A stretch of 64,000 nucleotides of DNA from an uncultured Bacilli bacterium (GTDB taxonomy: Bacteria; Bacillota_I; Bacilli_A; RF39; UBA660): contig CATKZK010000001.1 in the NCBI GenBank assembly GCA_949841325.1, positions 4,733 to 68,732 of the forward strand, in the 5' to 3' direction. The stretch's first letter is position 1; each line of letters starts with the position of its first letter. Position numbers and translations under genes: made by a program. Positions 437 to 48,321 of the stretch are shown in pieces. The notes beneath the pieces are model-generated. The model saw only the letters and a list, made by a program, of their open reading frames with translations, was not told the DNA's origin and made no database searches.

Positions 437-3256
437 GTGATGATTATGGATAAAATTATCGTAAAAGGTGCAAGAGAAAATAATTTAAAAAATATTAATA
501 TTGAGATTCCTAAAAATCAGCTTGTTGTTATAACAGGTGTATCAGGATCAGGGAAAAGTAGTTTAGCTTTTGATACCATCTATGCAGAGGGACAACGAAG
601 ATATGTGGAGAGTCTATCGGCTTATGCGAGACAATTCTTAGGAGGTTCTGAGAAACCAGATGTCGATTCAATTGAAGGGTTAAGTCCCAGTATTTCAATT
701 GATCAAAAGACGACAAATAATAATCCACGTAGTACCGTAGGAACGGTAACAGAAATCTATGATTATCTGCGACTCTTGTTTGCTCGTATTGGAACACCTT
801 ATTGTCCTAATCATCATATTCCTATTAATAGTCAAAGTATTGAAGAAATGACAAATCGTATTATGGAATATGATGAGGGAACGAAACTAGAGGTTTTATC
901 ACCTGTTGTTCATGGAGAAAAAGGAACACATAAGGATTTATTTGATCAATTGCGAAAAGACGGTTTTACGCGTGTAAGAGTAAACGGTACAGTGCAAGAT
1001 TTAAACGGAGAAATTATACTAGAAAAGAATAAAAAAGACAACATTGAAGTTGTTGTAGACCGTATTGTTTTATCTGATACAGAGAGGAGTCGTCTTTTTG
1101 AAGCGATAGAAACAGCAACAAAAATGGCAGATGGAAAAGTATTGATCAATATTATTGGTGAAAAAGAAATTCTCATGAGTGAAAAATATGCTTGTCCAGA
1201 TTGTGATTTTTCTCTTCCTGAATTAGAACCAAGAATATTTTCGTTTAATGCCCCTTATGGAGCTTGTACAATGTGTAAGGGACTTGGAATTACAAAACAT
1301 ATATCCCTAGATTTATTGATTCCTGATAAATCTTTATCAATTTTAGATGGTGCTATTAAGACTATGACTATTGATGATAATATAGAAACCAAACGTTTAT
1401 TTACGATTGCAAAGTCTTTAAAAATTGATTTAACAAAACCCATTAAAGATTTGAAAAAAGACCAACTAGATATTATTCTTTTTGGAACCAATCAAGAATT
1501 TAATTTTGAATATACTTCTAAAAATGGAAATAAACGATATACGACAGAAAGCTATGAAGGAGTTGTAGTCAATCTAGAGAGAAGATATATTGAAACCAAT
1601 AGTGCTTGGATACGTGATTGGATTGATGGTTATATGGAAGAAACTACGTGTCCGATTTGTAAAGGCTCAAGACTACAAGAAGCAGTTTTAACTGTAATGG
1701 TTGGAAAAAAGAATATCTACGAAGTGACGAATTTGTCCATCAAAGAGTTAATTTTATTTTTTGAACAATTAAAACTAAATAAAACACAGATGGAGATAAG
1801 CAATTTAATTGTTAAAGAGATTAAATCGCGCTTAAACTTTTTAGATAATGTGGGACTCAATTATTTAACTCTTTCACGTCCAGCATCAACTTTATCAGGA
1901 GGAGAAGCTCAGCGTATTCGTTTAGCTACCCAAATTGGTTCTCAGTTAAGTGGCGTTTTATATGTACTTGATGAACCAAGTATTGGACTTCATCAAAAAG
2001 ACAATGACCGTTTAATTGCCAGCTTGAAGAATATGCGTGATTTAGGAAATACACTTATTGTTGTAGAACATGATGAAGATACCATGAGAGAAGCAGATTA
2101 TTTAGTAGATATTGGTCCTGTTGCAGGAGCAGCTGGAGGATATGTTGTTGCTGCAGGAACACCAAAAGAAGTGATGAAAAATGAACAGTCAATAACAGGA
2201 AGATATTTAGCAGGAAAAGAATGTATTGAAGTTCCTAAAAAGCGTCGTAAAGGAAATGGTAATTTTATCAAAATTAAAGGTGCTAAAGAGAATAATTTAA
2301 AAAATATCAATGTTAAATTTCCTTTGGGAACATTTACCTGTGTTACGGGTGTATCAGGTTCGGGAAAATCCTCTTTAGTAAATGAAATTTTATGTAAAGC
2401 CTTACAGAAAAGTGTCTATCATTCAAAAGTGACAATTGGAAAACATAAGAGTATAGAAGGATTAGAATTAGTCGATAAAGTGATTCAAATTACGCAAGAC
2501 CCAATTGGAAGAACACCTAGAAGTAATCCAGCAACATATACAGGAGTATTTGATGACATTCGTTCTGTTTTTGCCGAGATGAAAGAATCTAAAATTCGCG
2601 GATATGATAAGGGAAGATTTTCTTTTAACGTCAAAGGCGGAAGATGCGAAGCTTGTTGGGGAGATGGAGTTAAAAAAATAGAGATGCATTTTTTACCAGA
2701 TGTCTATGTGCCTTGTGATGTTTGTCACGGAACACGTTTTAACTCGGAGACGCTAGATATTAAATTTAAAGGAAAAAATATTGCGGAAGTTTTAGATATG
2801 CGAGTAGAGGAAGCGATTGATTTCTTTGCCAGTGTACCTAAAGTAAAAAACAAATTGCAAATCTTAATGGATGTTGGTCTTTCTTATGCTAAATTAGGAC
2901 AATCTGCTCCTACTCTTTCTGGAGGAGAAGCAGGTCGTGTAAAACTTGCTAAAGAATTACAAAAAAAACCTACAGGGAAATCAGTCTTTATCTTAGATGA
3001 ACCGACAACAGGTCTTCATGCTGAAGATATCAAAAAATTATTACATATTCTTAAGAGAATTGTTGACAATGGAGATACTGTAGTTGTCATTGAACATAAT
3101 TTAGATGTGATAAAAGTGGCTGATTATATTATCGATTTAGGGCCAGATGGTGGAGATGGAGGAGGAACGATTGTTGCAACAGGGACTCCAGAAGCTATTG
3201 TTAAAACAAAAGAGTCTTATACGGGAGAATTCTTAAAACGTGTTTTAAATAAATAA
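437..3256 (+). CDS. uvrA: excinuclease ABC subunit A (UvrA)
   Basis: two ABC ATPase modules (GVSGSGKSSL twice; LSGGEAQRIRLA / LSGGEAGRVKLA), Zn-finger cysteines and a typical UvrA N-terminus; true start probably the ATG at 446. Confidence 0.95.
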   Translation: MMIMDKIIVKGARENNLKNINIEIPKNQLVVITGVSGSGKSSLAFDTIYAEGQRRYVESLSAYARQFLGGSEKPDVDSIEGLSPSISIDQKTTNNNPRSTVGTVTEIYDYLRLLFARIGTPYCPNHHIPINSQSIEEMTNRIMEYDEGTKLEVLSPVVHGEKGTHKDLFDQLRKDGFTRVRVNGTVQDLNGEIILEKNKKDNIEVVVDRIVLSDTERSRLFEAIETATKMADGKVLINIIGEKEILMSEKYACPDCDFSLPELEPRIFSFNAPYGACTMCKGLGITKHISLDLLIPDKSLSILDGAIKTMTIDDNIETKRLFTIAKSLKIDLTKPIKDLKKDQLDIILFGTNQEFNFEYTSKNGNKRYTTESYEGVVVNLERRYIETNSAWIRDWIDGYMEETTCPICKGSRLQEAVLTVMVGKKNIYEVTNLSIKELILFFEQLKLNKTQMEISNLIVKEIKSRLNFLDNVGLNYLTLSRPASTLSGGEAQRIRLATQIGSQLSGVLYVLDEPSIGLHQKDNDRLIASLKNMRDLGNTLIVVEHDEDTMREADYLVDIGPVAGAAGGYVVAAGTPKEVMKNEQSITGRYLAGKECIEVPKKRRKGNGNFIKIKGAKENNLKNINVKFPLGTFTCVTGVSGSGKSSLVNEILCKALQKSVYHSKVTIGKHKSIEGLELVDKVIQITQDPIGRTPRSNPATYTGVFDDIRSVFAEMKESKIRGYDKGRFSFNVKGGRCEACWGDGVKKIEMHFLPDVYVPCDVCHGTRFNSETLDIKFKGKNIAEVLDMRVEEAIDFFASVPKVKNKLQILMDVGLSYAKLGQSAPTLSGGEAGRVKLAKELQKKPTGKSVFILDEPTTGLHAEDIKKLLHILKRIVDNGDTVVVIEHNLDVIKVADYIIDLGPDGGDGGGTIVATGTPEAIVKTKESYTGEFLKRVLNK

Positions 3257-3315: not shown

Positions 3316-4029
3316 ATGGAACAACCAAGACAGAACAGTTTATTTTATTTTCAAATGGAGGATAAGATTGCCAAATTATTCATACATATAAATATCGCTG
3401 GATTAGAAGAAATTATCGAGCAAATGGTACTAAATTGTAGTAGGATAATACGCGTAGAAAATGCTTTAGAGACTACGTATTGTTTCAGAAATTATGATAA
3501 GGATTCTCATTATAGAGATGTAAGTGAACATGTTTTAACACGACCTTATTATGATAAGGACGATGTAGATATTTATTGTCCAGGAAAACGAATTGTTTCC
3601 TATACACATTATGAATATCCTTATTTTATAGATCATTTAATGGACATTGTAAATAGAGTAAAAAGAGGTGAAAGCGTAAAGCTTAATCTCAAATTCCCCG
3701 AAGAAAGCAAAGAAGATTATTTAGAAAAAATAAGAAAAGGTACAATGAAAATAAGAGAGGAAACAGCAAATGTGATTGAGTTTCCTAAAAAGGACTTATG
3801 TGAATATTATGATCAAATTCTAAATTGTATATCCGTTTTCGGAGTTGAAATAATGCCCATAGAAATCGTTCGAGATTTCATGCAATACTTTGAGTTTATT
3901 CGACAAGAAAATTTGGAGTTTCCTCAAAACGTTTTGCAAATGGAAAGTATGGATCCTCTATTAAGAGAACATTTCATTCGTCAAATGAAAGCGCTTGAAG
4001 GTAAATCAAAGAAATATGATATTTATTAA
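3316..4029 (+). CDS. hypothetical protein
   Basis: 237-aa ORF, no recognised motif. Confidence 0.45.
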   Translation: MEQPRQNSLFYFQMEDKIAKLFIHINIAGLEEIIEQMVLNCSRIIRVENALETTYCFRNYDKDSHYRDVSEHVLTRPYYDKDDVDIYCPGKRIVSYTHYEYPYFIDHLMDIVNRVKRGESVKLNLKFPEESKEDYLEKIRKGTMKIREETANVIEFPKKDLCEYYDQILNCISVFGVEIMPIEIVRDFMQYFEFIRQENLEFPQNVLQMESMDPLLREHFIRQMKALEGKSKKYDIY

Positions 4030-5059: not shown

Positions 5060-5311
5060 ATGACAGTACAAGAAAAAATTAATTTATTAACAGCAAACTT
5101 ATCCGCTTCAGAGATAGACTTGCCACAAGAAGAATACGAAGAGATGAAGCGCATAACAGAGATCGCTTCAGAATATTTTATCGACGGAGTTATTTCATCT
5201 ATTGATCCAGAAATGTTATTGGAGACTTATGAGAAGTATGATTCTATTTTAGATGAAAAGTTAGCACTATTAAAGAAAAGAGAAGAAAACCAAATACATC
5301 AAATGATATGA
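5060..5311 (+). CDS. small acidic hypothetical protein
   Basis: 83-aa ORF preceded by an AAGGAG RBS. Confidence 0.4.
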   Translation: MTVQEKINLLTANLSASEIDLPQEEYEEMKRITEIASEYFIDGVISSIDPEMLLETYEKYDSILDEKLALLKKREENQIHQMI

Positions 5312-5416
5312 TGTGTTTTTTTTTGAGAAAATCTGTAAATGTTACTTCTTTTAAGACAAACGTTGATACTTTTTCTGTTAATATTCATAGATTATACTAG
5401 AAAGGAAAGTGAAAAA

Positions 5417-6340
5417 ATGAATAATTGTCAATGTGGAAGATGTAATTCATGTTGCAATCCAAAACAAGGGCCGACAGGACCAACAGGAGCAAGAGGTGCT
5501 ACGGGTGCAACAGGCGCTACAGGATCAATCGGAGCAACAGGACCACAAGGAATTCAAGGACTTCAAGGAGTTCCAGGAGTAATGGGTGCAACAGGGCCAC
5601 AAGGAATTCAAGGTATTCAAGGGCCAACAGGACCAGTTGGACCAATTGGAGCAACAGGAGAAATCGGAGCAACAGGAGCAACGGGTGCAACAGGCGCAAC
5701 GGGAGCCACAGGAGAAGCAGGACCACAAGGAGTCCAAGGGCCAACAGGAGCCACTGGAGCAACAGGAGCAACAGGAGCCACTGGATTACAAGGAATCCAA
5801 GGTATTCAAGGACCAACAGGACCACAAGGTGAAGCTGGAGAAATAGGACCAGCTGGACCAACGGGAGCAACAGGAGCAACAGGAGCTACTGGAGCAACAG
5901 GAGCTACTGGAGCAACAGGAAGTGCACCAAATTTAACCATTGGAACAGTAACAACAGGAGTAAATGCTGCAGCTACTATCACAGGAACATCACCTAATTT
6001 TGTTCTAAATCTAGTATTACCTCAAGGGCCAACAGGACCAACAGGAGCAACAGGATCAACAGGAGCCACGGGTGCAACAGGAGCAACAGGTGCAAGTGAT
6101 ACAATCACAGTAAGAAATACAACAACTGGAGCTGCAGGAACCAATGCAACTGTAACCGATACTACAGGAAGTCCTAACCATATTTTAGACTTTGTCATTC
6201 CTCGTGGATATGATGGAGTAGATGGAGAAATTGGACCACAAGGAATCCAAGGTATTATTGGACCAACAGGACCAGTAGGTGCAACAGGAGCAACAGGTGC
6301 ATCTGGAAGATGTCGTTGCTGTAACAATGAAAATGAATAA
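5417..6340 (+). CDS. collagen-like triple-helix repeat protein with Cys-rich N- and C-terminal caps and two Thr-rich non-collagen insertions
   Basis: long runs of [12 protein letters not shown] (Gly-X-Thr/Gln) triplets; N-terminus [17 protein letters not shown]; C-terminus [11 protein letters not shown]; start chosen at the ATG at 5417, which has an AAAGGAAAG RBS. Confidence 0.85.
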
Positions 6341-7406
6341 ACTAAAAGTAGTAGTTTATGCTATTTCTAAAAATGAAAGTGCTTTTGTAGAACGATGGGT
6401 TCAATCGATGTCTGAAGCTGATGAAATTTATGTATTAGATACAGGATCAACCGATGATACTGTATCTAAATTAAAAGCATTAGGTGTTCACGTTTTCGTG
6501 AAAGAAATCAAACCTTGGAGATTTGATGTCGCTCGTAATGCTAGTTTAGATTTAGTTCCTATGGATACAGATGTCTGTATCTGTACAGACTTAGATGAAA
6601 TCTTAGAAAGTGGATGGCGTGAAAAGATAGAAAAGTGTTGGAATCAATCTAATCGATTGCGTTATAAATACAATTGGTCGATAGATGACCAGGGAAAGCC
6701 AGTCGTCACTTTTCTATATGAAAAAATTCATGACCGTAAACATTATAGATGGATCTATCCCGTTCATGAAGTACTGGAGTGCTCTTTAGAGAATGAAAAA
6801 GTAGAAGTAAATGAAGAAATTGTTCTAAACCATTATCCAGACAAAACAAAATCACGTGCATCATATTTACCATTACTCGAATTATCTGTTAAAGAAAATC
6901 CAAACAATGACCGAAATCTTCATTACCTTGGTCGGGAATATATGTACTATCAAGAATGGAATAAATCAATTGATACATTACTAAAACATCTAAAACTCGA
7001 AACGTCCACTTGGAAAGAAGAACGTTCTGCCTCTATGCGCTTTATTTCAAGATGCTATTTAAACTTAGGTCGTTCTGATGAAGCTAAATATTGGCTAAAT
7101 AAAGCGATAGAAGAAAGTCCACATCAAAGAGAAGGATACGTAGAATTAGCACTACTAGAATTTTCTAATCACAATTATTTTGAAGTGATTATCAATTGTC
7201 TTAAGGCAAAGCAAATTCTAAAAAACGAAATGATTTATATTAACGAACCATTTTGTTGGAATGAAACTATTGATGATTTATTGTCTATTAGCTACTATTA
7301 TTTAGGGCTACGTGATTTAGCTATTTATCATGTCAATAAAGCTTTAGAGTATAATCCTCAAGATAAACGTTTGCAAAAAAATAAAGAGATTTTTGAATTA
7401 ATTTAA
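6327..7406 (+). CDS. family-2 glycosyltransferase with C-terminal TPR repeats
   Basis: GT2 N-terminal fold ([10 protein letters not shown]...[11 protein letters not shown]), TPR-like helical C-terminus; the start overlaps the collagen gene's stop. Confidence 0.75.
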
Positions 7407-8764
7407 TTCAATATCTCTTTTTTTAATTGTTTTTCTATCTTGCTTGAATATAGTGCATGTAGCAAATGATAAATAACATGTAGTTGAGGCCAGGTGTAAT
7501 ATTCTCTTTCTTCTATTGAAGAATTAAGTGATAAGTTTTCATTCAGCCTATGTTTAAAGTATTCTCTTATTTTGGTCTTTTCATTCGGGGTCAGCTCGCT
7601 TAAAAAATCATGATGTATATTGATAAACTTTTTATAGTGTTCCCCATTTAATTTTACAAAAAAATCATTTAACTTTTCCATTTCAAAATCTTGTTCAGCA
7701 TCAATCGAGAAAAGCTGTGCACCATATTCATTTAATACGGTATTTTTAAAAAGAAGAAATTCTTCTTGCTCCAATGTTTGCTCTATATGTTTGATTATTC
7801 TTGGTAAAATATCTTTTTCTTCTTCACAAATAGAAGTATCTGTTGTTAAGAGATAGTGCTTTAAAATTTCCAATTCAATTGGATCTTTGTATTGATTTTT
7901 TAAATAAAGATAAAGGATTAATTGTATTGGCTGAGTGGGTTTTAGAAGATCCCAAGAAATAGTTTTAGGAACCTCGCATTTTTTTCCCAAAAAGTCTGAT
8001 GCTACAAGATTCCTTACATGTATTATTGTATCTGACTCTATATTTGAAATATATGTATGACTTATGTGAAATTCATTGGCAATCTCTCTCATTGTCTTTT
8101 GCTCTATAATTCTTGAAAAAAGGATATAATATTCAAATGGCAAAAGCGTTTTCTTTAAAGTATAAAGAAGAGGAAGAATAGTTTCAGAATCAATGACTTT
8201 TTCCGTAAAATCTTCATTATCAGGAATTCTCTTTGTTTTTTTGTTTTTCTTTGCAAATTCATAAGATAATACTTGAAGATGATTATAGTAACACAAATGA
8301 TTGAACACAGAATCCTTCACTTTGAGTTCTTTTTTTAGTTCTTCGTCTGTTAATAGAGACTCTGTCTTCTTTCTCTTTATTCCCTCAAAAGAGAGTAATT
8401 TATCAAAGATGTTAACGGGAAAAGAAAAATCATAATCAAGGATTTCTAATTCTTTTCTAATTTTTCTATGAATCAACAAAGCTGCGAGTGTCGAAAATGC
8501 GCCTTTTTCTGGATCAAAATGCATAATAGCTTTCATCAAACCTTCAATACCTGCAAAAGTAATATCCATTTTATCTTGACTATTTCGATTCTTGAAATAA
8601 GGAGATGCACAATGTTCAACAAGATGAAGATTGTGTTTAATCAGCTTTTTATAAGCTTCTTTATCTCCGTTTTGTGCTTTTTCAAATAAAAGAGCTGATT
8701 CTTTTGGTTTTAAAGGAGGAAACCTTTTTATTTCTCTTAAATAGTTTGCATAGATATCTTTCAT
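7403..8764 (-). CDS. sigma-70 family RNA polymerase sigma factor with a ~190-aa C-terminal extension (paralog B)
   Basis: region 2 (HNLHLVEHCA...; DITFAGIEGLMKAIMHFDPEKGAFSTLA) and region 4 HTH (TMREIANEFHISHTYISNIE); 453 aa. Confidence 0.7.
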   Translation of the reverse strand: MKDIYANYLREIKRFPPLKPKESALLFEKAQNGDKEAYKKLIKHNLHLVEHCASPYFKNRNSQDKMDITFAGIEGLMKAIMHFDPEKGAFSTLAALLIHRKIRKELEILDYDFSFPVNIFDKLLSFEGIKRKKTESLLTDEELKKELKVKDSVFNHLCYYNHLQVLSYEFAKKNKKTKRIPDNEDFTEKVIDSETILPLLYTLKKTLLPFEYYILFSRIIEQKTMREIANEFHISHTYISNIESDTIIHVRNLVASDFLGKKCEVPKTISWDLLKPTQPIQLILYLYLKNQYKDPIELEILKHYLLTTDTSICEEEKDILPRIIKHIEQTLEQEEFLLFKNTVLNEYGAQLFSIDAEQDFEMEKLNDFFVKLNGEHYKKFINIHHDFLSELTPNEKTKIREYFKHRLNENLSLNSSIEEREYYTWPQLHVIYHLLHALYSSKIEKQLKKEILN

Positions 8765-10149
8765 TTTAATTTCTTCTCTTTCTTATTTTTTTGAATAGGC
8801 TTTAAATCAAGAAGTAGAATATTACATGCTTGATTTAATTTTTTCCATTTTATACCATTTCTTTCTTCTAAAGTTGAATGCAAGGTAAGAGGTAAAAAAG
8901 CTTCGGCAAGGACCACTTTAAGAATTCTTTTTTGATCATCACGAACTTTATATTTTTCTGTTAATGTCGTTATATTTAGTGGAGCATATTGTTCTAGCAA
9001 CTGATTCATCAAATCAATATCAAAGTCATAATCTACGTTAATACCTATAATTTCTGTTTTATATTCATCAATTAATTGATTGTGGAATGCTTGATAAAGA
9101 GGATCCTTAGAAAGTGTAGAACAAAGCTCTTTAAAATAAGCAAGCTTGCTTTGGTATAAAGAAAAAGGAAGATTAAAGTAATTCGCATATTCTTTTGGAC
9201 TACAATCATAAGTAGGAATCAAATATTCTCTTAACATTTTTACATCATCCCCATTTAAATTGAGATTTTTTAAATAAAGGTAAAGTGTAATATTTCTAGG
9301 ATTTGGTGGTACAACAGAAAGAGAGGGTGAACAGTCTTTTATTCCATTGTTTTTAATATACTCTTGTATTCTTTTTCTCGTGCGATTTGCTTTTTGCTCT
9401 ATTGCCTGTCTTTCAATACCATTAAATTCTTGCGCAATTACCTCATATCGCTTTTCTAATAAGAAGTGATGGTAAAAGCAATAATAGTAGTGTGGCTCTA
9501 CAATCTTTTTAATCGTATGTAAAATATTTCTAACGTGATAAGAAGAGATGATATCATGACAAATATCTGTATCATTGGCAATGATATTTTCAAGAGAATC
9601 ATCATTTCCTTCTAATACTTCATCGAAACTTAGACCACGAGAAAGACGATCTCCTTTAAAAGTATCAAGTATTTCTTTTGAAACACATATTTCTTTCATC
9701 ATTTCTTGATCATTTAATTCAGGCAAACGTAGATTTTCGCGATTCTCTTTAATCCCATTATATACGTTAAACTTTTTCCATTTATCTATAGGCATATAAA
9801 GTGTCGTGTGGATAAGTTTTAATTGTTCTTCTAATTCTTGTTTTATTGATGGATAGGCATAAGTTGTAAATGCGCCTTTTTCAGGATTATAACTGTTGAT
9901 TGCATTTGTAAGTCCTAAGTTAGCTGCATTCACTAGATCCATTCGTTGATGTCTTTGTACTTTTGAAAAAACATCAACGGCCATTTTCCATGCAAGTCGT
10001 AAATTATGATAAAGAAGTTTATCCTTTGCTTCTTCTGCTTCTTCTTTATCTCCTGCTATCATCTTGCAAGCCAACTCATATTGTTGACTTGGTTCTAACA
10101 ATGGTATACTTTTAACTAGCTTTTTATATTCTTCATAAATATCGGTCAT
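8761..10149 (-). CDS. sigma-70 family RNA polymerase sigma factor with a ~190-aa C-terminal extension (paralog A)
   Basis: region 2 (LLYHNLRLAWKMA...; MDLVNAANLGLTNAINSYNPEKGAFTTYA) and region 4 (VIAQEFNGIERQAIEQKANRTRKRI); shares the LYLYLKN motif with paralog B; 4-nt overlap with the downstream paralog. Confidence 0.7.
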   Translation of the reverse strand: MTDIYEEYKKLVKSIPLLEPSQQYELACKMIAGDKEEAEEAKDKLLYHNLRLAWKMAVDVFSKVQRHQRMDLVNAANLGLTNAINSYNPEKGAFTTYAYPSIKQELEEQLKLIHTTLYMPIDKWKKFNVYNGIKENRENLRLPELNDQEMMKEICVSKEILDTFKGDRLSRGLSFDEVLEGNDDSLENIIANDTDICHDIISSYHVRNILHTIKKIVEPHYYYCFYHHFLLEKRYEVIAQEFNGIERQAIEQKANRTRKRIQEYIKNNGIKDCSPSLSVVPPNPRNITLYLYLKNLNLNGDDVKMLREYLIPTYDCSPKEYANYFNLPFSLYQSKLAYFKELCSTLSKDPLYQAFHNQLIDEYKTEIIGINVDYDFDIDLMNQLLEQYAPLNITTLTEKYKVRDDQKRILKVVLAEAFLPLTLHSTLEERNGIKWKKLNQACNILLLDLKPIQKNKKEKKLK

Positions 10150-10251
10150 AAAAACACCCCTTTGCGTTACATATTATACAGATTTTAGAAAAAATTGCAA
10201 ATAAGCACTCTTTTTTTGTTATACTTAAATAGAGAAAAGGATGTGTTAAAG

Positions 10252-11418: not shown

Positions 11419-12092
11419 GAGTTTGTGGAAAAAATATATTAAGAGAAGTAAATCCCAAAAAGGTACGTAAAGTGCTTTTATCTAGTCACTTTAGTGACCA
11501 AGAATTAATGAATAAAATAAAGAATGAAAAGTTAAAATATATGATAATGGATCAAAAAACGATGGATGCGATGATGCCTCATAATCAAGGGGTTATTATC
11601 GAAATGGATGATTATGAATATGCGTCAATAGAGGATATACGTGGAGATTTTATAGTTGTTTTAGATCATTTAGAAGATCCTCATAACTTCGGTGCCATTA
11701 TTAGAACCTGCGAAGCGAGAGGAATAAAGGAGATTATTATTCCTAAAGATCGAGGAGTACTAGTAAATGATACCGTTATGAAGACAAGTGCTGGAGCTCT
11801 TAATCATGTACATATTATTTTAGTAACAAATTTGCACAATACGATTGAAAAACTAAAGGATCAAGGCTATTTTATTTATGGAGCAGAGGCTGATGGTGTA
11901 AATTATCAACAAGTAAATTATGCTAAAAAACGTGTATTAGTCATTGGAAGTGAGGGGAATGGTTTATCAAGACTTGTTAAAAAAGATTGTGATGAAATCA
12001 TTTCTATCCCTATGAAAGGGAAGGTTAATAGTTTAAATGCCTCTGTAGCAAGTGCTATATTAATCTATGGAATAGGTGATGAAGATGCCTGA
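11415..12092 (+). CDS. rlmB: 23S rRNA 2'-O-methyltransferase, SpoU/TrmH family (RlmB-like)
   Basis: SPOUT motifs (LDHLEDPHNFGAIIRT; VLVIGSEGNGLS) and conserved position after mrnC. Confidence 0.8.
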   Translation: MRVCGKNILREVNPKKVRKVLLSSHFSDQELMNKIKNEKLKYMIMDQKTMDAMMPHNQGVIIEMDDYEYASIEDIRGDFIVVLDHLEDPHNFGAIIRTCEARGIKEIIIPKDRGVLVNDTVMKTSAGALNHVHIILVTNLHNTIEKLKDQGYFIYGAEADGVNYQQVNYAKKRVLVIGSEGNGLSRLVKKDCDEIISIPMKGKVNSLNASVASAILIYGIGDEDA

Positions 12093-12681
12093 TTATCCTG
12101 ACAATGAACTTGTGAATATGGTATGCGAAGACAGCGAAGATGCTAGAGATATCCTATATAAAAAATATGTTGGCATCGTGGATTATCTTGTGTATAAATA
12201 TCGAAATATTGCTAAAGCTATTGGCATTGATAGTCAAGAATTGCGTCAAGAAGCCATGGTAGGGTTTTCACATGCTATTGTTAGTTATAATCAAAATAAG
12301 GAGACTTCTTTATCTACTTTTATCTCTTTATGTGTTGAAAGAAGAATTCGCAATATTGTAAGAAATTTTGATTCGCAAAAGACTAAATTATTTAAAGATA
12401 CGTATTCTCTTGATGAACCTCTTACAAATGATGAAAACACTTTAACTGATTTTCTAGGAGATTCCAAAACGGATCCTCAAGTGTTAATGGAAAATGAAGA
12501 AGAAAGAAAGCGATTAATTAATCAAGCGCATGATGTATTAAGTCCAAGTGAAAAAGATGTTTTCGATTTGTTAATCAATGGTTTTACTTATCGAGATATA
12601 GAATCTATTTTACAAATTGATACAAAACAACTTTATAATTTTATCAGTCGTATTCGTAGTAAGCTGAAAAAATGGATGTAA
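12076..12681 (+). CDS. sigH: sigma-H-like sigma-70 family factor
   Basis: sigma regions 2 and 4 in a 201-aa protein, in the mrnC-rlmB-sigH order conserved in Firmicutes. Confidence 0.75.
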   Translation: MMKMPDYPDNELVNMVCEDSEDARDILYKKYVGIVDYLVYKYRNIAKAIGIDSQELRQEAMVGFSHAIVSYNQNKETSLSTFISLCVERRIRNIVRNFDSQKTKLFKDTYSLDEPLTNDENTLTDFLGDSKTDPQVLMENEEERKRLINQAHDVLSPSEKDVFDLLINGFTYRDIESILQIDTKQLYNFISRIRSKLKKWM

Positions 12682-25003: not shown

Positions 25004-27067
25004 TTAAAAATTAGTTTTTAAATGCAAATGTTTTTCTTTTCTATGTTCATTTATCATATTCAGTGTCTTTTGTTTAAAGTGCAATACAGTTTCATAATCA
25101 GTAGCGAAAGAGATAAAGGTACACAATGTCTTTTCAGCTCTTTCAAAATCATCAATGTTTAAATAATGCGTAATCACTAATGAAATATTGTCTTGTGTGT
25201 GTAGTGGGTCAGTATATAAAACGACATAGCACAATATATCGATTTCTTGTTTGTCAAAGGCATAACCCATCGTAGATAGTTTTTGAAATTTTTCAAAATA
25301 GGAATGACATACATCTTCACTAGGGACCTTCCCCCAATACATCTTAAGAAATCTTTTTTTCTCTTCTAAAAAGTCTTTTTTTCCTTTTTCCAATTCTAAG
25401 TTTTGTTTATTTTGGATAGCTTCTTGGGCAGATTTGCGTAAGTTTTCTAATTCATTAATACTTAAATTTCTATGTTGACAAATGCCTACAATTCGTTTTT
25501 TTACGTATGCAATAGATGAATTAATCTTGTTAGCAATCTGATGATTAGAAAGCCCATGACGAGTGATGTAATTCCAAATCTCTTTATCTTCTTTAAATTT
25601 TTTTTGTCTGCTTAATTTTTTTAATCTTTTCTTTTGATATTTAAAAATTTCTTCCTTTGTTATTTGCTTATCAGCAATTAAACGAGCTTTACTTCGACGA
25701 ACACGACTTTCAGTTAACATTCCTGATGCATCTGATGCGATTATTTCCTTAACAGTTAATCCATCTTTTAAAAGAGGTAATATACGAGCGTCAATCGCTG
25801 TATAACTATCGTGATTGGCATCGACCACTTGTTTAACTGACTCGTCATCAATTAAGCCTTCATATTTTAAAGCTTGAATAATTCTATAAATGCTTGTCTC
25901 AGAAATTTCATCTATATCATCTTTATTTATCGTTCGATAAATTTCGCATGTCCCCATTCCAAGATTATATAACTCCTTAGTTGTTTCCCTATAATATAAA
26001 CGTCTATTGTTAAGTGCTTCATTGATAATCTTTTGAGAAATGTAGTGATTTAGTTTTAAATATGTAATTTTTTCCATCAAATCTTTTTGAAGAAGTTTTG
26101 TTTTCTTACTAATATAGGTATATGAATATCCTGCTTTAAGATAGTTAATAATGTGTACTTCCGCTTCCGTTAATTTATCATCAATCTCTTTTATTTCTAT
26201 ATCTTTTTTCTTTCTTTTTCTTTCATTCTTAGACGTTTTTGTATATTTGCGCTTTATACCCGCGATCGCGTTAATACTTATGTCGAAAATGGCGGAAATC
26301 ACTTTATAAGGGACATTAAATTCGATTAAGGCTAATATCTTTTCATTACGTAAACGAATCTCTTCCGATTTATCATCAAAATCTCTTTTTATCCGTTCAA
26401 TACTAGAAACAGTTATATTAAATATTGCTCCAATAATGTCATAAGGAATATTGAACTCAACTAAAGCGAGAATAATTTCATCTCTCCTTTTTAACTCCTC
26501 TTGTAATTCTAATTTGCCATTTATTATTTCACTTCTTTGTATTTCATTATTTTCGATTAATATTTCAAAATATCGAGCAATTGTAGTCATAGGAATTCCT
26601 GTAATGTTACTAATTTCAGTCTTTGTTTTTTTATCTTTAACTAGCTTTTTAATTATGTTCAATTTTTCGATTTTCTCTTGCTCTTCTAAAGGAATAACGT
26701 TTAGATTGGCAAGTCTATCTTGTATTCTTTCGATCGAGGCATTTATATCCGCATACTGATAATGATAAACCTTATTAAGATAGCTCCTGCTTTTTCCCGT
26801 TGATAAGGCTTGATAGGTACGTTCATCAAGAATTAAATCTACATCTCTTTGTGCTTTCTTTTTTGCATCATCAATCTCTTTTTGTGTAATTTTACCCATT
26901 TGAATTAATTTCTTTTTTATATTACAACAATACTGACGTGATCGACCTAAATGTTCACTCATTTTTGTATAAGACCAGCCAGTTCTCAACATGTTTTCTA
27001 TTTCCTTATAATCTTCTTGTTTTTCCTCTTTGCTAAATCTAACATTCGACATTTTGCATCCCCTCAA
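25004..27067 (-). CDS. large protein built of at least six repeated helix-turn-helix-like modules (putative transcription regulator)
   Basis: recurring HTH-like segments (ILALVEFNIPYDIIGAIFNITVSSIERIKRDF / ILALIEFNVPYKVISAIFDISINAIAGIKRKY, plus four more); 687 aa. Confidence 0.55.
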   Translation of the reverse strand: MRGCKMSNVRFSKEEKQEDYKEIENMLRTGWSYTKMSEHLGRSRQYCCNIKKKLIQMGKITQKEIDDAKKKAQRDVDLILDERTYQALSTGKSRSYLNKVYHYQYADINASIERIQDRLANLNVIPLEEQEKIEKLNIIKKLVKDKKTKTEISNITGIPMTTIARYFEILIENNEIQRSEIINGKLELQEELKRRDEIILALVEFNIPYDIIGAIFNITVSSIERIKRDFDDKSEEIRLRNEKILALIEFNVPYKVISAIFDISINAIAGIKRKYTKTSKNERKRKKKDIEIKEIDDKLTEAEVHIINYLKAGYSYTYISKKTKLLQKDLMEKITYLKLNHYISQKIINEALNNRRLYYRETTKELYNLGMGTCEIYRTINKDDIDEISETSIYRIIQALKYEGLIDDESVKQVVDANHDSYTAIDARILPLLKDGLTVKEIIASDASGMLTESRVRRSKARLIADKQITKEEIFKYQKKRLKKLSRQKKFKEDKEIWNYITRHGLSNHQIANKINSSIAYVKKRIVGICQHRNLSINELENLRKSAQEAIQNKQNLELEKGKKDFLEEKKRFLKMYWGKVPSEDVCHSYFEKFQKLSTMGYAFDKQEIDILCYVVLYTDPLHTQDNISLVITHYLNIDDFERAEKTLCTFISFATDYETVLHFKQKTLNMINEHRKEKHLHLKTNF

Positions 27068-28696: not shown

Positions 28697-28928
28697 AGTC
28701 ATGACTAATACTTATATTTTAGATAAGAATAACTTTGATAATTAAGAAATAAAATATTCTGCTACATGCTTCATGCTACATAATAAGGGTAATACTATCC
28801 TTATTATGGCGAAGACTTTAGTGGCTACGCCACTAGTCTCGCTCATGTATATTTTTAAATACTACGCAATCTCATAGTATTTTTTATTTGAACTTATAAA
28901 ATTAATAATACAAACTAATTTTTCTAAA

Positions 28929-35546: not shown

Positions 35547-36500
35547 CTATCGCCCGCTTTTTTCACTTTGTACATACAACAACTGTTTTGGAATATCCCT
35601 CTCAGCTTCTTCTTTAATTTCCACTTTTTCTCCAAAGAGGACATCAAAAATATGATGGTAATCTTCATTTGTTAGTTTCACGATTCCATTATTTCTTTTA
35701 TAAATAATGATACTGATTAAAACTTTTGCAATATAGGAATCAAATGGATGAATGGTAAAATCAAAGACATCTTTAATCCCTTTAATATTATAGCCACCAG
35801 CATAATTTAAATGAGATGATAAATAAGAGCTAAATACTTGTTTCTCTGAGGATAACGGCAATGTCATATATTCGCTATAGCCTTCATTATAATAATTGAT
35901 AAGACCCTCTCTATCCCAAAAGCGATGAGTTGGACATTCGATTCCTAATGTATTTTTACTGTTTTTATCTGCTTCTATACAAAGTAAGTTTTTTCCTTTC
36001 GCATATAAATCAATCTTTGTATTTACTTTATCGGAATTGATATACTTTCCATTAAACTCTTTAAATGGAGCTAGCGTAAATGCATTTCCTACTAAAAAAT
36101 ATAGATGTGCTACATTACTAAAAGTTTGACCTCCATATACGGGCATTCCCTTTAATTCAGTAGCGCCTACTGTTAAGATTTCAAATTCTTGATCTGCTCT
36201 AAATTGATATAGATGCTTGACTATTTCTGCAAGTTCTTTTACATTTAATTCTCCATCTTGTTGTAGTGGGAAAGACCCTCTTCTAGAGACATAAATCTGT
36301 AATGCATCCATATTTGGAAATCTTTCATATAAAACAAATTCTTTATTCCTTTTTCTATTATAGAAATTTTCATAGGCATCGGCAATATATCCATAAATAT
36401 CATTTTGTAATGTATTTACTTTTTTTAGAAAATGATTTGCTTCTTTTCTTTTTTCTTCTAAAGACTGTATTTCTTTTTGTAATGTTTTTATTTTATCCAT
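35547..36500 (-). CDS. hypothetical protein (N-terminal coiled coil)
   Basis: 317-aa ORF, no recognised motif. Confidence 0.45.
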   Translation of the reverse strand: MDKIKTLQKEIQSLEEKRKEANHFLKKVNTLQNDIYGYIADAYENFYNRKRNKEFVLYERFPNMDALQIYVSRRGSFPLQQDGELNVKELAEIVKHLYQFRADQEFEILTVGATELKGMPVYGGQTFSNVAHLYFLVGNAFTLAPFKEFNGKYINSDKVNTKIDLYAKGKNLLCIEADKNSKNTLGIECPTHRFWDREGLINYYNEGYSEYMTLPLSSEKQVFSSYLSSHLNYAGGYNIKGIKDVFDFTIHPFDSYIAKVLISIIIYKRNNGIVKLTNEDYHHIFDVLFGEKVEIKEEAERDIPKQLLYVQSEKSGR

Positions 36501-36524
36501 AGTATATCCTCTTTTCCGATTCGT

Positions 36525-38045
36525 TTAATTGTGATAACTCTTTATTTTATCGTCAGTACTCTGCGTTTTTTGTCTCTTCTCGATCGTTTCTAACGTATTG
36601 ATGATGTACTGCTGTTTATAAGGCGTTGCATTTATATAGTCTTCTTTTACTTTTTGTTCTCCGCCATAACGATCGATCGTTTCAGTAGAATATACTTTTA
36701 AACTTTCTGGTAGCTTGTAATCATTTTGGTAAAAGGAGAATAACGCCTCTTCATCATCTATTTTTACGATTTCTTCATTTTCAAGTTCATTTGATGAAGC
36801 AAGTGCCTCTAATGCTTTTTTCATATGTTCTTTTGTCCACTTCATCACATAAAGTGCATCTGTTGGTCCTAGTTTACATACTAAATCTTTAAGTGTTTGT
36901 TGAATCATTTGATGTAATTCTCTTAAAATTGGTTTCATTTTTTGTTTAAAAGATGGAGTAAAATATTGCCAACTAAAGTAAAGTGCGACTGTGTGAATCC
37001 ATAAATCAATACAGTCATTTTCTTTTGCTAAATAAAGACGTGTATTAAATGGTTTGCTTTTCATTTCGTGATAAAAACGATTTGGTATTTTAAATAATTC
37101 ATTTGGCAAAATGTGATTATATAATTCTTTAGGAAAGTTTCCTTTTGCATTGAGATGCCATCCTACATACATTCTCTTAGCACGGTTTATTTTTTCAATC
37201 AAGTCTAAACTTTGAAAAGAGAGGGGGAGTGTAATAATAACACCATTTTTATTAAAAGAACCAAATTTGATTTCATTTTCTTTAGAAATATTTGATGCAA
37301 TCAAAACACTAGAACCAATCAGTAATATATCGTTTGTCATAAATCCTACTGTTCTTTCTTTTGGATAGGGGCTTACTAAAGCATCTTGTTTTGTAAGATA
37401 CATCGTTTTCTTCTTTGGAATGCATTCAATAAGCTTAATAGTAGCAGATCCATTAAAGAGCATTTGTTCATGAATGGTTAAATCAACACCATTGTTGATT
37501 TCTGTAATTGTGTAATATCCTTCCTGAAAACCTTTTATATAGAGAAGATATTGCTTAAATAAATTACAAGGCAATTCGTGGAGTTTTTCTTTTTCTAATT
37601 TTTTTAATTCTTCGTATGCAGATTCAATTGATTTGTGTTGAACAAATAAAGGAAGCGCACGAATGTCATTGCCAAATATACTATTTTTTGTATATTCAAG
37701 TTCAGAAATATCATGTAGAGAAATTTTACCTGTACGGTCAATCGCTTGATAAAGACAAGGTTCATTTTCATTTTTATAGTAAACTGTTAAAATTTGAAAG
37801 TCTCTTTCTTTGTCTTTTTTATTCTTTTCAGTTACTAGAAGTTTAGACGTATCAAAATTGCCTTTCATATATTCCAGTGGATATTGCCTAGGATTTTTAT
37901 AATTGCAAACATTAATATTCTGACATTCTTTTAGAATGTGACTATTCACAAGCTGACTATGCACAGTCTCCTTTTTATGTTCAGTATCTACCATATCCAC
38001 ATAATACTCTCTATTTTTCTTATATATACTTAATAGTAAAATCAT
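36525..38045 (-). CDS. hypothetical protein
   Basis: 506-aa ORF, no recognised motif. Confidence 0.45.
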   Translation of the reverse strand: MILLLSIYKKNREYYVDMVDTEHKKETVHSQLVNSHILKECQNINVCNYKNPRQYPLEYMKGNFDTSKLLVTEKNKKDKERDFQILTVYYKNENEPCLYQAIDRTGKISLHDISELEYTKNSIFGNDIRALPLFVQHKSIESAYEELKKLEKEKLHELPCNLFKQYLLYIKGFQEGYYTITEINNGVDLTIHEQMLFNGSATIKLIECIPKKKTMYLTKQDALVSPYPKERTVGFMTNDILLIGSSVLIASNISKENEIKFGSFNKNGVIITLPLSFQSLDLIEKINRAKRMYVGWHLNAKGNFPKELYNHILPNELFKIPNRFYHEMKSKPFNTRLYLAKENDCIDLWIHTVALYFSWQYFTPSFKQKMKPILRELHQMIQQTLKDLVCKLGPTDALYVMKWTKEHMKKALEALASSNELENEEIVKIDDEEALFSFYQNDYKLPESLKVYSTETIDRYGGEQKVKEDYINATPYKQQYIINTLETIEKRQKTQSTDDKIKSYHN

Positions 38046-38711: not shown

Positions 38712-39644
38712 TTACTTAACTTGATAAGATTTCATCGGATCTTTTATTAATTCTCTTTGATAACCAAGTACTCTAGTCCCTTCATGACGAACTTGACTAT
38801 CTTCATATATTAAAAAATTTTTATAATCTTTAGCTGTATAATTTGTTTCATATCGTAAGTCTTTATCTTCATAGTATAAAGCATTACGATAACTTAAAGC
38901 AAATCCATCTAAGTAAGCTTTTAGCACATCGTCAGTTAATTCAATCCACCCATATTTATTAATAACTGTAGCTACTTGAGTGCGCAAATGATCTAAAGTC
39001 ATATAGATACCTGCAAGTGGTGGGAAAACATACGGAACTCCCATTCTTTCCAATCGCGTATCATTTTCTATAAAAAATTGTTTATAAGATACATCGACTA
39101 AATAATAAGTATTCCCATGTTCAATAATATTGAAATAATGGTAGCCATTTCCATCAAATAGAGTTGCCTCTTCATCAAATCCAGGATCTATTCTTACTAC
39201 ATGACATTTTAAATCACATCGTTTAGCAGCTTCCTTAACGTGATTAGAAGCAACCTCACACATATTCATTACATCATATTTATCATAGTGTTTGCGAAGA
39301 TCTAGATTTCCAATTAATCTTTTCCTCGTATAGTAAACGACATAATCCAAATAGTCTAAAACGGAATAAGTGGTTCTATTTTTACTATAGTTAACGTTAT
39401 TATTAACGCCTCGTAAATCTCTAAAAAAACCTTTAGTATCACAAATATAGTCAGTTCGCAAGTTTATCAGTTCAACATTTAATTTTCTTATATACTGACG
39501 ATACTCATCATTCATTTTTATTCCATCATAATAATATGGTGCTACTATTTTTATTTTCCTTAGTATTTTATCTAAATTCTCATATCGTTTATAAGGTTTA
39601 ACTAATACAGCTTTTGCTTCCTTTATAATTTCTTCCACAGTCAT
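38712..39644 (-). CDS. transglutaminase-like / papain-fold cysteine protease domain protein
   Basis: Cys-His-Asp arrangement (MCEVASNHVKEAAKRCDLKCHVV ... GYHYFNIIEH ... YYLVDVS) matching the transglutaminase core pattern. Confidence 0.45.
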   Translation of the reverse strand: MTVEEIIKEAKAVLVKPYKRYENLDKILRKIKIVAPYYYDGIKMNDEYRQYIRKLNVELINLRTDYICDTKGFFRDLRGVNNNVNYSKNRTTYSVLDYLDYVVYYTRKRLIGNLDLRKHYDKYDVMNMCEVASNHVKEAAKRCDLKCHVVRIDPGFDEEATLFDGNGYHYFNIIEHGNTYYLVDVSYKQFFIENDTRLERMGVPYVFPPLAGIYMTLDHLRTQVATVINKYGWIELTDDVLKAYLDGFALSYRNALYYEDKDLRYETNYTAKDYKNFLIYEDSQVRHEGTRVLGYQRELIKDPMKSYQVK

Positions 39645-47221: not shown

Positions 47222-48319
47222 ATGGAATATTACAAGATGGATGAAGTGGAACTGCGAATAAGACGTATAAAGAATTTAAAAAGCATTCATGCCTTCTTTC
47301 TTCAAAATCAAGAAAAATTTGTTCTTTCTGTAACAACAGAAACAGATAATATCATTGTTGATAATCATCATCCTCATTTTATGCTTTTTCTCACCTCTCT
47401 TGCCAATGCTTATTTTGATGAATGTGATACACGTAGAATTTTAGTGCTTAATCCTGATGTTATTAGTCTCTTAAAAGAAAATAAACAAAATCAAATAACA
47501 AGATCATCTTTTATACCTGTTGAAAAAATAGAGTATCAAAGTAATGAACTTCGTTTTTTCACTACCTTTATTTATGAAGCTTTAGCAGTTGTCTTTGGAT
47601 GTAATGGAGTAGAAATTACTCGTTTTAGCCCGATGAAAGGTATGCGTACTTTCTTTCATATGTTTGCAGAAACAAAGGGCAATACGTATATCTTACCTAT
47701 AAAGTATAGTAAAAAAAGTGAAAATAAAATTGTCCTTGAGATTGGCAATGTTGTAGGAACCTCTCTTCATTTGGAAATTCGTTATTCTCCTTCAGGTGTA
47801 CGTATTTATTTCCATGGAGGATCTATTCCTTTAGTAGGTACCATTATATATGAACTAGACCAGGAACCTACTCATGAAGTAGAAGTGATGTATGAAAATC
47901 AAATGAGTTTTTATAATCGTGAGAGTCTAGTAGGCGAAGAAATGAATGGGAAAATGGCTTACTCGCTTTCTCCAGAATTTACGATACTTTATCAGGAAGA
48001 AGAAAGTACAAAGGATACTGAATATCGATTGGAAACAGAAGAATTTAAAAAGTGTGTTCATTTAAAAGAAAAGTGGCGTTTCATTGGAGAAATAAAGTGT
48101 CCTGTCTACACCGATTACGAAGGCTATGAAGAATATAAAATAGGTAATAATTTTTCTCTTGTTCAAAAATATAATATCGATAATCAATATAGTATTGACG
48201 ATATTCATTTGATCTTAAAAGAGGGGGAAAAAGAGATTATTCCTCCTAAAGGCATGACAGAAGAGCTAAAGAGTTTAGATGAACGAGTTATTCGTTTACG
48301 ATTAGAAAGGAAAGAGTAA
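47222..48319 (+). CDS. hypothetical protein
   Basis: 365-aa ORF; translationally coupled to the next gene (3-nt gap). Confidence 0.45.
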   Translation: MEYYKMDEVELRIRRIKNLKSIHAFFLQNQEKFVLSVTTETDNIIVDNHHPHFMLFLTSLANAYFDECDTRRILVLNPDVISLLKENKQNQITRSSFIPVEKIEYQSNELRFFTTFIYEALAVVFGCNGVEITRFSPMKGMRTFFHMFAETKGNTYILPIKYSKKSENKIVLEIGNVVGTSLHLEIRYSPSGVRIYFHGGSIPLVGTIIYELDQEPTHEVEVMYENQMSFYNRESLVGEEMNGKMAYSLSPEFTILYQEEESTKDTEYRLETEEFKKCVHLKEKWRFIGEIKCPVYTDYEGYEEYKIGNNFSLVQKYNIDNQYSIDDIHLILKEGEKEIIPPKGMTEELKSLDERVIRLRLERKE

Positions 48320-48321
48320 CA

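Follow-up and report, generated by a model that had tools for sequence, protein, structure and literature searches.

A tandem pair of predicted sigma-70-family proteins with a conserved C-terminal extension in an uncultured Bacilli bacterium

What are two unusually long, adjacent sigma-70-like genes, what is the C-terminal part that their products share, and do they control the collagen-like operon on which they converge? The question arises from a first-pass annotation of a 64,000-nucleotide stretch (the window) of contig CATKZK010000001.1 from an uncultured Bacilli bacterium (assembly GCA_949841325.1). It described two neighbouring minus-strand genes of 462 and 453 amino acids (aa), and the open reading frames agree with it in size and position. 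We consider it highly probable that the products are real sigma-family proteins with a novel conserved extension. The pair is laid out as follows.

10173-10200, minus strand: promoter-like site of housekeeping type, TTGCAA-16-TATAAT, 5' of the sigma operon and followed by an AAAGGGG ribosome-binding site
8761-10149, minus strand: open reading frame of the upstream sigma paralog, 462 aa, gene 1 of the two-gene operon
7403-8764, minus strand: open reading frame of the downstream sigma paralog, 453 aa, gene 2 of the operon

The two genes meet in an ATGA at 8761-8764, where the TGA of the 462-aa gene overlaps the ATG of the 453-aa gene, and on this arrangement they are probably coupled in translation.

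Profile searches identified the N-terminal ~265 residues of both proteins as sigma-70-family modules. Both passed the Pfam cut-off of 24 bits for Sigma70_r2 (PF04542; 28.1 bits for the 453-aa and 31.3 bits for the 462-aa protein), and the three other members of the family described below scored 43-50 bits. The NCBIfam model of the sigma-70 superfamily, TIGR02937 (cut-off 42.9 bits), was aligned end to end at 57.0 bits by the 453-aa and 53.6 bits by the 462-aa protein; in the latter, residues 41-264 correspond to model positions 2-164 of 165. The RpoS, SigB/F/G and RpoD_Cterm models aligned from residue ~3-40 to residue ~253-271 of the window pair, and the sequence matches of the pair in the PDB were RpoS, SigA, SigK, SigF and RpoH. 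The AlphaFold2 (AF2) model of the 462-aa protein matched the folds of sigma32, sigmaS and sigmaA chains over 270-310 columns. The 453-aa protein also matched the sigma factor profile phrog_351 (E 5.5e-28) over the sigma core only, at profile positions 477-731 of 928.

Region 2 and a region-4 helix-turn-helix (HTH) had been proposed within the first ~270 residues; region 2 stands above the cut-offs, and region 4 is weaker. Sigma70_r4 (PF04545, cut-off 24.1 bits) scored 20.6 bits in the 453-aa protein and 18.3 bits at best in the other three members, in one of them, and the Pfam search of the 462-aa protein for this domain gave no match. The position of region 4 is covered by the full-length TIGR02937, RpoS, SigB/F/G and RpoD_Cterm alignments and by modelled helices (H206-267). 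Between sigma2 and sigma4 lie ~90 residues with a region-3-type HTH pattern, 'D-E-L..L.IS...L', in all five members. This stretch is included in the alignments to the RpoS and SigB/F/G models and is of low confidence in the AF2 model; a search of all five members with PF04539 (region 3) gave no match. Because of these ~90 residues and their conserved pattern, the predicted layout of residues 1 to ~265 is group-3-like and not like that of extracytoplasmic function (ECF) sigma factors. Scores against named subfamilies were 62.8 bits for SigK (cut-off 252), 56.1 for SigG (372), 46.6 for SigF (321), 38.9 for SigE (339) and 51 for the SigB/F/G model (234). The MzaA model gave 35 bits against a cut-off of 800, and PADLOC held no system protein matched by the window pair. 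Judged by curated thresholds, the pair belongs to the sigma-70 family and falls below the threshold of every named subfamily.

The C-terminal domain of ~190 aa beyond residue ~265, which had been called a domain of unknown function, indeed gave no above-threshold match in Pfam, NCBIfam, PHROG or PADLOC. No SnoaL, TPR, zinc-finger or HTH family profile matched it at E <= 10, and we found in it no transmembrane segment, membrane anchor, ligand-binding domain or recognisable anti-sigma domain (zf-HC2, RsgI_N, RskA etc.). A SWIRM match (19.5 bits, cut-off 28.6) was rejected as sub-threshold and read merely as small, helical and HTH-like.

A HMMER profile built from the two window extensions was scanned exhaustively against 1.84 billion (1.84e9) cluster representatives. 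Five proteins were matched: the pair's own cluster, a 56-aa fragment, one spurious match and two relatives. The relatives accepted as real are P0019, of 393 aa, and P0021, of 396 aa. They are sigma-like and carry a shorter extension (~120 aa), which has in common with the window pair the motif PxxPxxIxxYLYLK and the next ~90 residues; P0020 was rejected as a relative, being a low-complexity repeat protein. P0019 is encoded 3' of PFOR and recG in the 'Bacilli bacterium' metagenome-assembled genome (MAG) JAAWDB010000092 (locus L003), and a fifth member of 518 aa follows it after 56 nt. P0021 is a lone gene with its own terminator in GCA_051872535.1 (locus L005), between a SWIM-domain gene and YbbR/Ku/LigD genes. 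The features seen around it (1241-2275, minus strand, and 5073-8080, plus strand) are a divergent SWIM-domain gene on one side and YbbR-like, Ku and LigD genes downstream. The known family comprises five proteins of 393-518 aa from three uncultured low-GC genomes, two of which hold a tandem pair and the third a single gene.

A profile search of genome contigs with the region-2 pattern returned mostly generic sigma factors, with locus L007 as the sole family member. No further members were found in the window, in 86 other loci or, with the extension core, in JGI metagenome contigs or IMG/VR; phage and plasmid records held no close relative. Word-indexed homolog searches with each full protein recovered near-identical copies and generic sigma factors only. 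The 598-aa sigma-like protein P0002, considered as a bearer of the extension, was rejected because it has none. No anti-sigma gene was recognised beside any family member. By sequence, the family is restricted to a few uncultured low-GC bacteria, and its hallmark is a predicted all-helical C-terminal extension. The extension is a conserved feature of the family, present in all five members. The first-pass annotation had named, as one ground on which its view would fall, a family norm above 450 aa with a known function; a length above 390 aa is the norm, but in a family without known function.

The window proteins are collinear from residue 1 to ~445, extension included (27% identity, E 1e-28), which bears out the earlier view that they are diverged duplicates and not fusion artefacts; the extension therefore predates the gene duplication. 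The local motif noted as common to the two extensions is real, and is the signature of the whole family, PxxPxxIxxYLYLK. Pairwise identity within the window pair (~27-28%) is about the same as to other members, and the JAAWDB proteins are mutual closest relatives (40% identity). Since the MAG pair are closest to each other and the window pair equally distant from all, tandem duplication seems, on these identities, to have occurred repeatedly in the family.

Within the extension, a core and a tail could be told apart.

8998-9324, minus strand: extension core of the 462-aa protein, residues ~276-384, PxxPxxIxxYLYLK plus a predicted sigma-4-like HTH bundle
7658-7945, minus strand: extension core of the 453-aa protein, residues ~274-369, with ~11 residues fewer in the helix-2/turn part; net charge -11, isoelectric point (pI) 4.4
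8764-8997, minus strand: extension tail of the 462-aa protein, basic, helical, of low confidence; net charge +8, predicted local distance difference test score (pLDDT) below 60

The tail has counterparts at 7406-7657 in the 453-aa protein (net +2) and in the 518-aa L003 member, and is thus present in three of the five members and absent from the two of ~395 aa. When the extension alone was modelled with AF2 from a four-sequence alignment, mean pLDDT was 69; residues ~10-95, the core, formed a helical HTH bundle at pLDDT 80-93, and the tail was predicted at low confidence. The closest folds to the core (first ~95 residues) were YlxM/UPF0122 and sigma region 4. Comparison of the core profile with the family's own region 4 by hhalign placed HTH on HTH (E 5e-4, score 24.2). 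The real score was reached by none of 100 column shuffles of the region-4 alignment (10.9 +/- 2.7, maximum 19.6), and the HMMER core profile also hit region 4, as weak secondary matches, in P0019 (conditional E 0.003) and in P0021 (0.013). These findings make it fairly likely that the modelled core is a sigma-4-like HTH, and lend moderate support to the idea that it arose, perhaps long ago, when region 4 was duplicated within the protein. The tail was rejected as a third sigma-4-like unit, as hhalign gave no signal for it against region 4 or against the core.

How might such an extension act? In the window proteins the core is an acidic domain (net charge -5, pI 4.6, and net charge -11, pI 4.4); in the other three members it is close to neutral (-3, -2 and 0). 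Its third helix, at the recognition position, begins F/L-E/S-E/L-Y-Q and is without a conserved Arg or Lys. Given this acidity and the lack of a basic recognition helix, we infer that the core would not read DNA, and a regulatory or protein-binding role is our tentative choice for it, at somewhat less than even odds. The overall reading that we favour, for which the balance is about even, is an operon of two paralogous cytoplasmic alternative sigma factors whose activity is gated by the extension. The two proteins would bind core RNA polymerase. Their genes would be transcribed from housekeeping-type promoters and the proteins made constitutively; similar promoter-like sites precede other family genes (TTGCAG-17-TATAAT at L007, TGtTATAAT at L005), and the second L003 gene has a TATAAT in front. 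With promoters of this type, control of the sigma factors would therefore be post-translational, and the acidic sigma-4-like core could be the control element, acting in cis on the sigma core or through a partner protein. Fused C-terminal extensions accompany the absence of an anti-sigma factor in some ECF groups (PMC7826278), and cis-gating here may, by analogy, parallel ECF extensions that replace anti-sigma factors. As first suggested, the extension may be a built-in anti-sigma or sensor module; its core is predicted as a sigma-4-like HTH bundle and not as a known anti-sigma or ligand-binding fold, and the acidity would fit a cis-inhibitory or protein-binding role.

Several observations weigh against the gated-sigma reading. 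Region 4 is under the Pfam cut-off or unseen in 5/5 members, so that DNA recognition by the sigma part is itself putative; the hhalign probability for core against region 4 is 30% only; the core of the second L003 member (L003b) has a net charge of 0, so acidity is not universal; and the 453-aa protein is without part of the core HTH, a module that may be degenerate there. One alternative is that the core is a second functional DNA-binding HTH which reads a third promoter element upstream of -35 and confers very narrow specificity. The fold class, a sigma-4-like HTH, is what it would predict, and the tail, basic in the window proteins (+8 and +2), could contact DNA. However, the core of the window pair has a pI of 4.4-4.6 and no conserved Arg or Lys in its third helix, the 453-aa paralog has lost the helix-2/turn segment, and two of the five members have no basic tail. 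In view of the charge, and of an HTH that is degenerate in one of the paralogs, we rate DNA reading below a regulatory role and regard it as unlikely. It is more improbable still that the two are sigma-like duplicates in decay or without function, such as the remains of a mobile element. The family is a great rarity with a divergent region 4, the best profile match is to a phage sigma family (phrog_351), and strains differ in the 453-aa gene by 6 non-synonymous and 3 synonymous changes, numbers so small that dN/dS is uninformative. Against decay, both reading frames are intact across all three near-identical assemblies of the species, the family motifs are conserved across three genomes at 23-30% identity, extension included, and the promoter and ribosome-binding sites are good. 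Relatives or neighbours from phages, plasmids or defence systems were looked for and none was found.

The gated-sigma reading can be set beside known systems. Like group 3 sigma factors (SigB/F/G, RpoS, RpoH, FliA), the window pair has a predicted sigma2-sigma3-sigma4 layout in ~265 aa, and the fold matches to sigma32 and sigmaS are to chains of holoenzyme structures; unlike them, it lies far below the subfamily cut-offs, its region 4 is unusually divergent, and the family carries a C-terminal extension of 120-260 aa where group 3 factors have none. ECF sigma factors with fused extensions (such as ECF41/42/238) resemble it in their conserved C-terminal fusion and in having no recognised anti-sigma gene nearby, but their core has two domains, sigma2 and sigma4, joined by a short linker, and the extension is SnoaL-like, TPR or Cys-rich, whereas the window pair has a ~90-residue stretch with a putative region-3-type HTH and an extension predicted as a sigma-4-like helical bundle. 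YlxM/UPF0122 (PDB 1xsv) is, with sigma region 4, the closest fold to the core; by sequence the core falls outside PF04297, and unlike YlxM or an isolated sigma region 4, it is acidic and preceded by the family-specific PxxPxxIxxYLYLK helix. SigI too is a sigma factor of Firmicutes whose C-terminal part departs from the canonical form: a separate domain stands there instead of region 4 and is the binding site of the anti-sigma factor RsgI. In the window pair, by contrast, a putative region-4-like HTH is kept and the extra module is appended after it, and no RsgI-like gene is adjacent; no SigI model was among the 25 best NCBIfam matches of either protein. Region 1.1 of sigma-70, an acidic autoinhibitory N-terminal domain, supplies the functional analogy for the favoured mechanism, namely a helical, acidic part of a sigma factor for which DNA binding is not required; it sits at the opposite protein end and has a different fold, and no homology is claimed. 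Finally, unlike those of phage or defence sigma factors, the neighbours of the window pair are housekeeping genes. A third sigma-family gene, SigH-like, lies less than 5 kb from the pair, at 12076-12681 (plus strand), in the order mrnC-rlmB-sigH that is usual for it; its best NCBIfam match scored 94.5 bits (cut-off 212).

The first-pass annotation had considered this not to be a described sigma group, and we came to the same view: none of the curated profile libraries tested contains the extension, and the literature searches gave no paper that describes it. Full-text literature searches for sigma factors with a C-terminal extension or a duplicated region 4 returned ECF cases only. The sigma part is ordinary; the appended, putatively sigma-4-like module and the recurrent tandem pairing are undescribed. 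Fused regulatory extensions are well documented for ECF factors, and none was found described on three-domain sigma factors in Pfam, NCBIfam, PHROGs, PADLOC or the full-text searches. If the extension is a sigma-4-derived cis gate, it would be a new route to a sigma switch without a separate anti-sigma factor, and an instance of a domain duplicated within such a factor. In practice its importance is limited by the size of the family, five proteins in three uncultured genomes.

Does the pair regulate the operon that it faces? The region between and beyond the convergent genes contains the following features.

7383-7420, both strands: bidirectional intrinsic-terminator-like hairpin, spanning both overlapping stop codons
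6279-7406, plus strand: glycosyltransferase with GT2 and TPR domains, start at 6279, 6327 or 6333, within the last part of the collagen gene; a neighbour that converges on the sigma operon
5417-6340, plus strand: collagen-like (GXT repeat) protein with Cys-rich ends, Pfam Collagen E 1.5e-33; a neighbour, whose membership in the sigma system is not supported
5368-5394, plus strand: SigK/SigE-type promoter-like motif AC-N16-CATAgatTA, 23 nt 5' of the collagen ATG

The stop codons of the 453-aa gene (7403-7405, minus strand) and of the GT2-TPR gene (7404-7406, plus strand) overlap at 7403-7406, as first described. The accompanying statement that no terminator lies between the convergent operons is contradicted by the sequence at 7383-7420, a 38-nt interrupted palindrome that on either strand has a run of A upstream and a run of T downstream. 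Compared with dinucleotide shuffles, its folding energy has a z of -3.2 on the plus strand (-13.4 kcal/mol) and of -5.8 on the minus strand (-15.1 kcal/mol). A consensus terminator scanner made no call there, probably because the stem is AT-rich, and Rfam and tRNA scans of 4.9-10.4 kb gave no match. The hairpin looks like a bidirectional terminator that would separate the two operons.

The collagen-like and GT2-TPR genes overlap and form one plus-strand operon. The likely start of the former is ATG 5417, with the ribosome-binding site GGAAAG; the open reading frame as called from 5339 is longer by a hydrophobic leader, which is probably untranslated. The collagen-like protein has two non-collagen inserts with a common motif, T-G-SPN-hydrophobic-L-x-hydrophobic-V-hydrophobic-P. 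Upstream of this operon, two orphan genes, at 3316-4029 (plus strand, 237 aa) and 5060-5311 (plus strand, 83 aa, acidic), flank lgt. Neither has a Pfam or PADLOC match, and a weak hairpin with a T-run follows the 83-aa gene. A promoter scan found no good housekeeping promoter 5' of the collagen gene. When its upstream region was compared by eye with other nearby intergenic regions, no common motif was evident. The motif at 5368-5394 matches the SigK/SigE-type consensus of Bacillus subtilis; across the window such sites are no more frequent than expected (7 matches, 9.6 +/- 3.2 expected), and we take it as a lead, not a result.

The sigma pair had been described as spatially paired with the collagen/glycosyltransferase module; that it is the dedicated regulator of this module we regard as unlikely. 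The adjacency is kept in the three near-identical assemblies of the species. The operon has no good housekeeping promoter and so must depend on an alternative sigma factor of some kind; SigK models are those that region 2 of the 453-aa protein matches best, and a SigK-like -10 motif lies upstream of the collagen gene. However, the adjacency is found in that one species only. Among the other genomes, one has a pair and another a single gene, with other neighbours, and no collagen or glycosyltransferase genes lie in their recovered flanks (for the JAAWDB pair the upstream side, with recG and PFOR, was recovered and the part downstream of the pair was not). The operons are convergent with the terminator-like hairpin between them, the SigK score is marginally above those of RpoS and SigG and stands at 62.8 bits against its cut-off of 252, and the motif is expected by chance about once per 13 kb. 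A regulatory pairing is thus possible but unsupported. A rather less unlikely alternative, though still an improbable one, is that the collagen/glycosyltransferase operon is a spore-surface (BclA/SgtA-like) module under mother-cell sporulation sigma factors and the sigma pair is unrelated, with targets elsewhere. AC-N16-CATAgatTA lies 23 nt from the ATG, and GXT collagen repeats adjoin a glycosyltransferase gene as in Clostridioides difficile, where BclA3 is glycosylated by SgtA (PMC7157674); in C. difficile the bclA genes are under SigE/SigK control (bioRxiv 10.1101/2021.06.21.449304). But no sporulation gene was recognised among the profiled window genes or in the 10 kb beyond, and the motif match is possibly due to chance. 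The most elaborate version is an undescribed class of group-3-type sigma factors, each a self-contained sigma/anti-sigma switch, in which a duplicated and acidified region 4 would be a built-in anti-sigma decoy and the paralogs would cross-regulate each other and drive the collagen-like glycoprotein operon; we consider it very improbable.

Other parts of the window and its surroundings showed further features. At 25004-27067 (minus strand) a 687-aa protein consists of repeated small HTH units (HTH_23, HTH_28, Trp_repressor and TrmB matches); its gene lies within a 25-26% GC patch at ~26-30 kb, where GC content drops and GC skew changes direction. Beside this patch, at 28760-28808 (minus strand), is the Rfam ssNA-helicase RNA RF03070 (47.3 bits, gathering score 41.5), and together the RNA and the low-GC patch may point to a mobile or foreign segment. 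Large open reading frames (317, 506, 310, 365 and 710 aa) without a Pfam family at E <= 1e-5 lie at 35547-38045 (minus strand), 38712-39644 (minus strand) and 47222-50454 (plus strand). EF-Tu of the organism is alone in its 90% identity cluster, and the lineage is poorly sampled. About 8 kb past the window end (locus L087, 17972-20266, plus strand), a DUF285/LRR_5 surface-protein gene and a PMT_2 glycosyltransferase gene follow rpsF-ssb-rpsR; the former is a hint at the taxon, as DUF285 is common in Mycoplasmatota-like and some Bacilli lineages.

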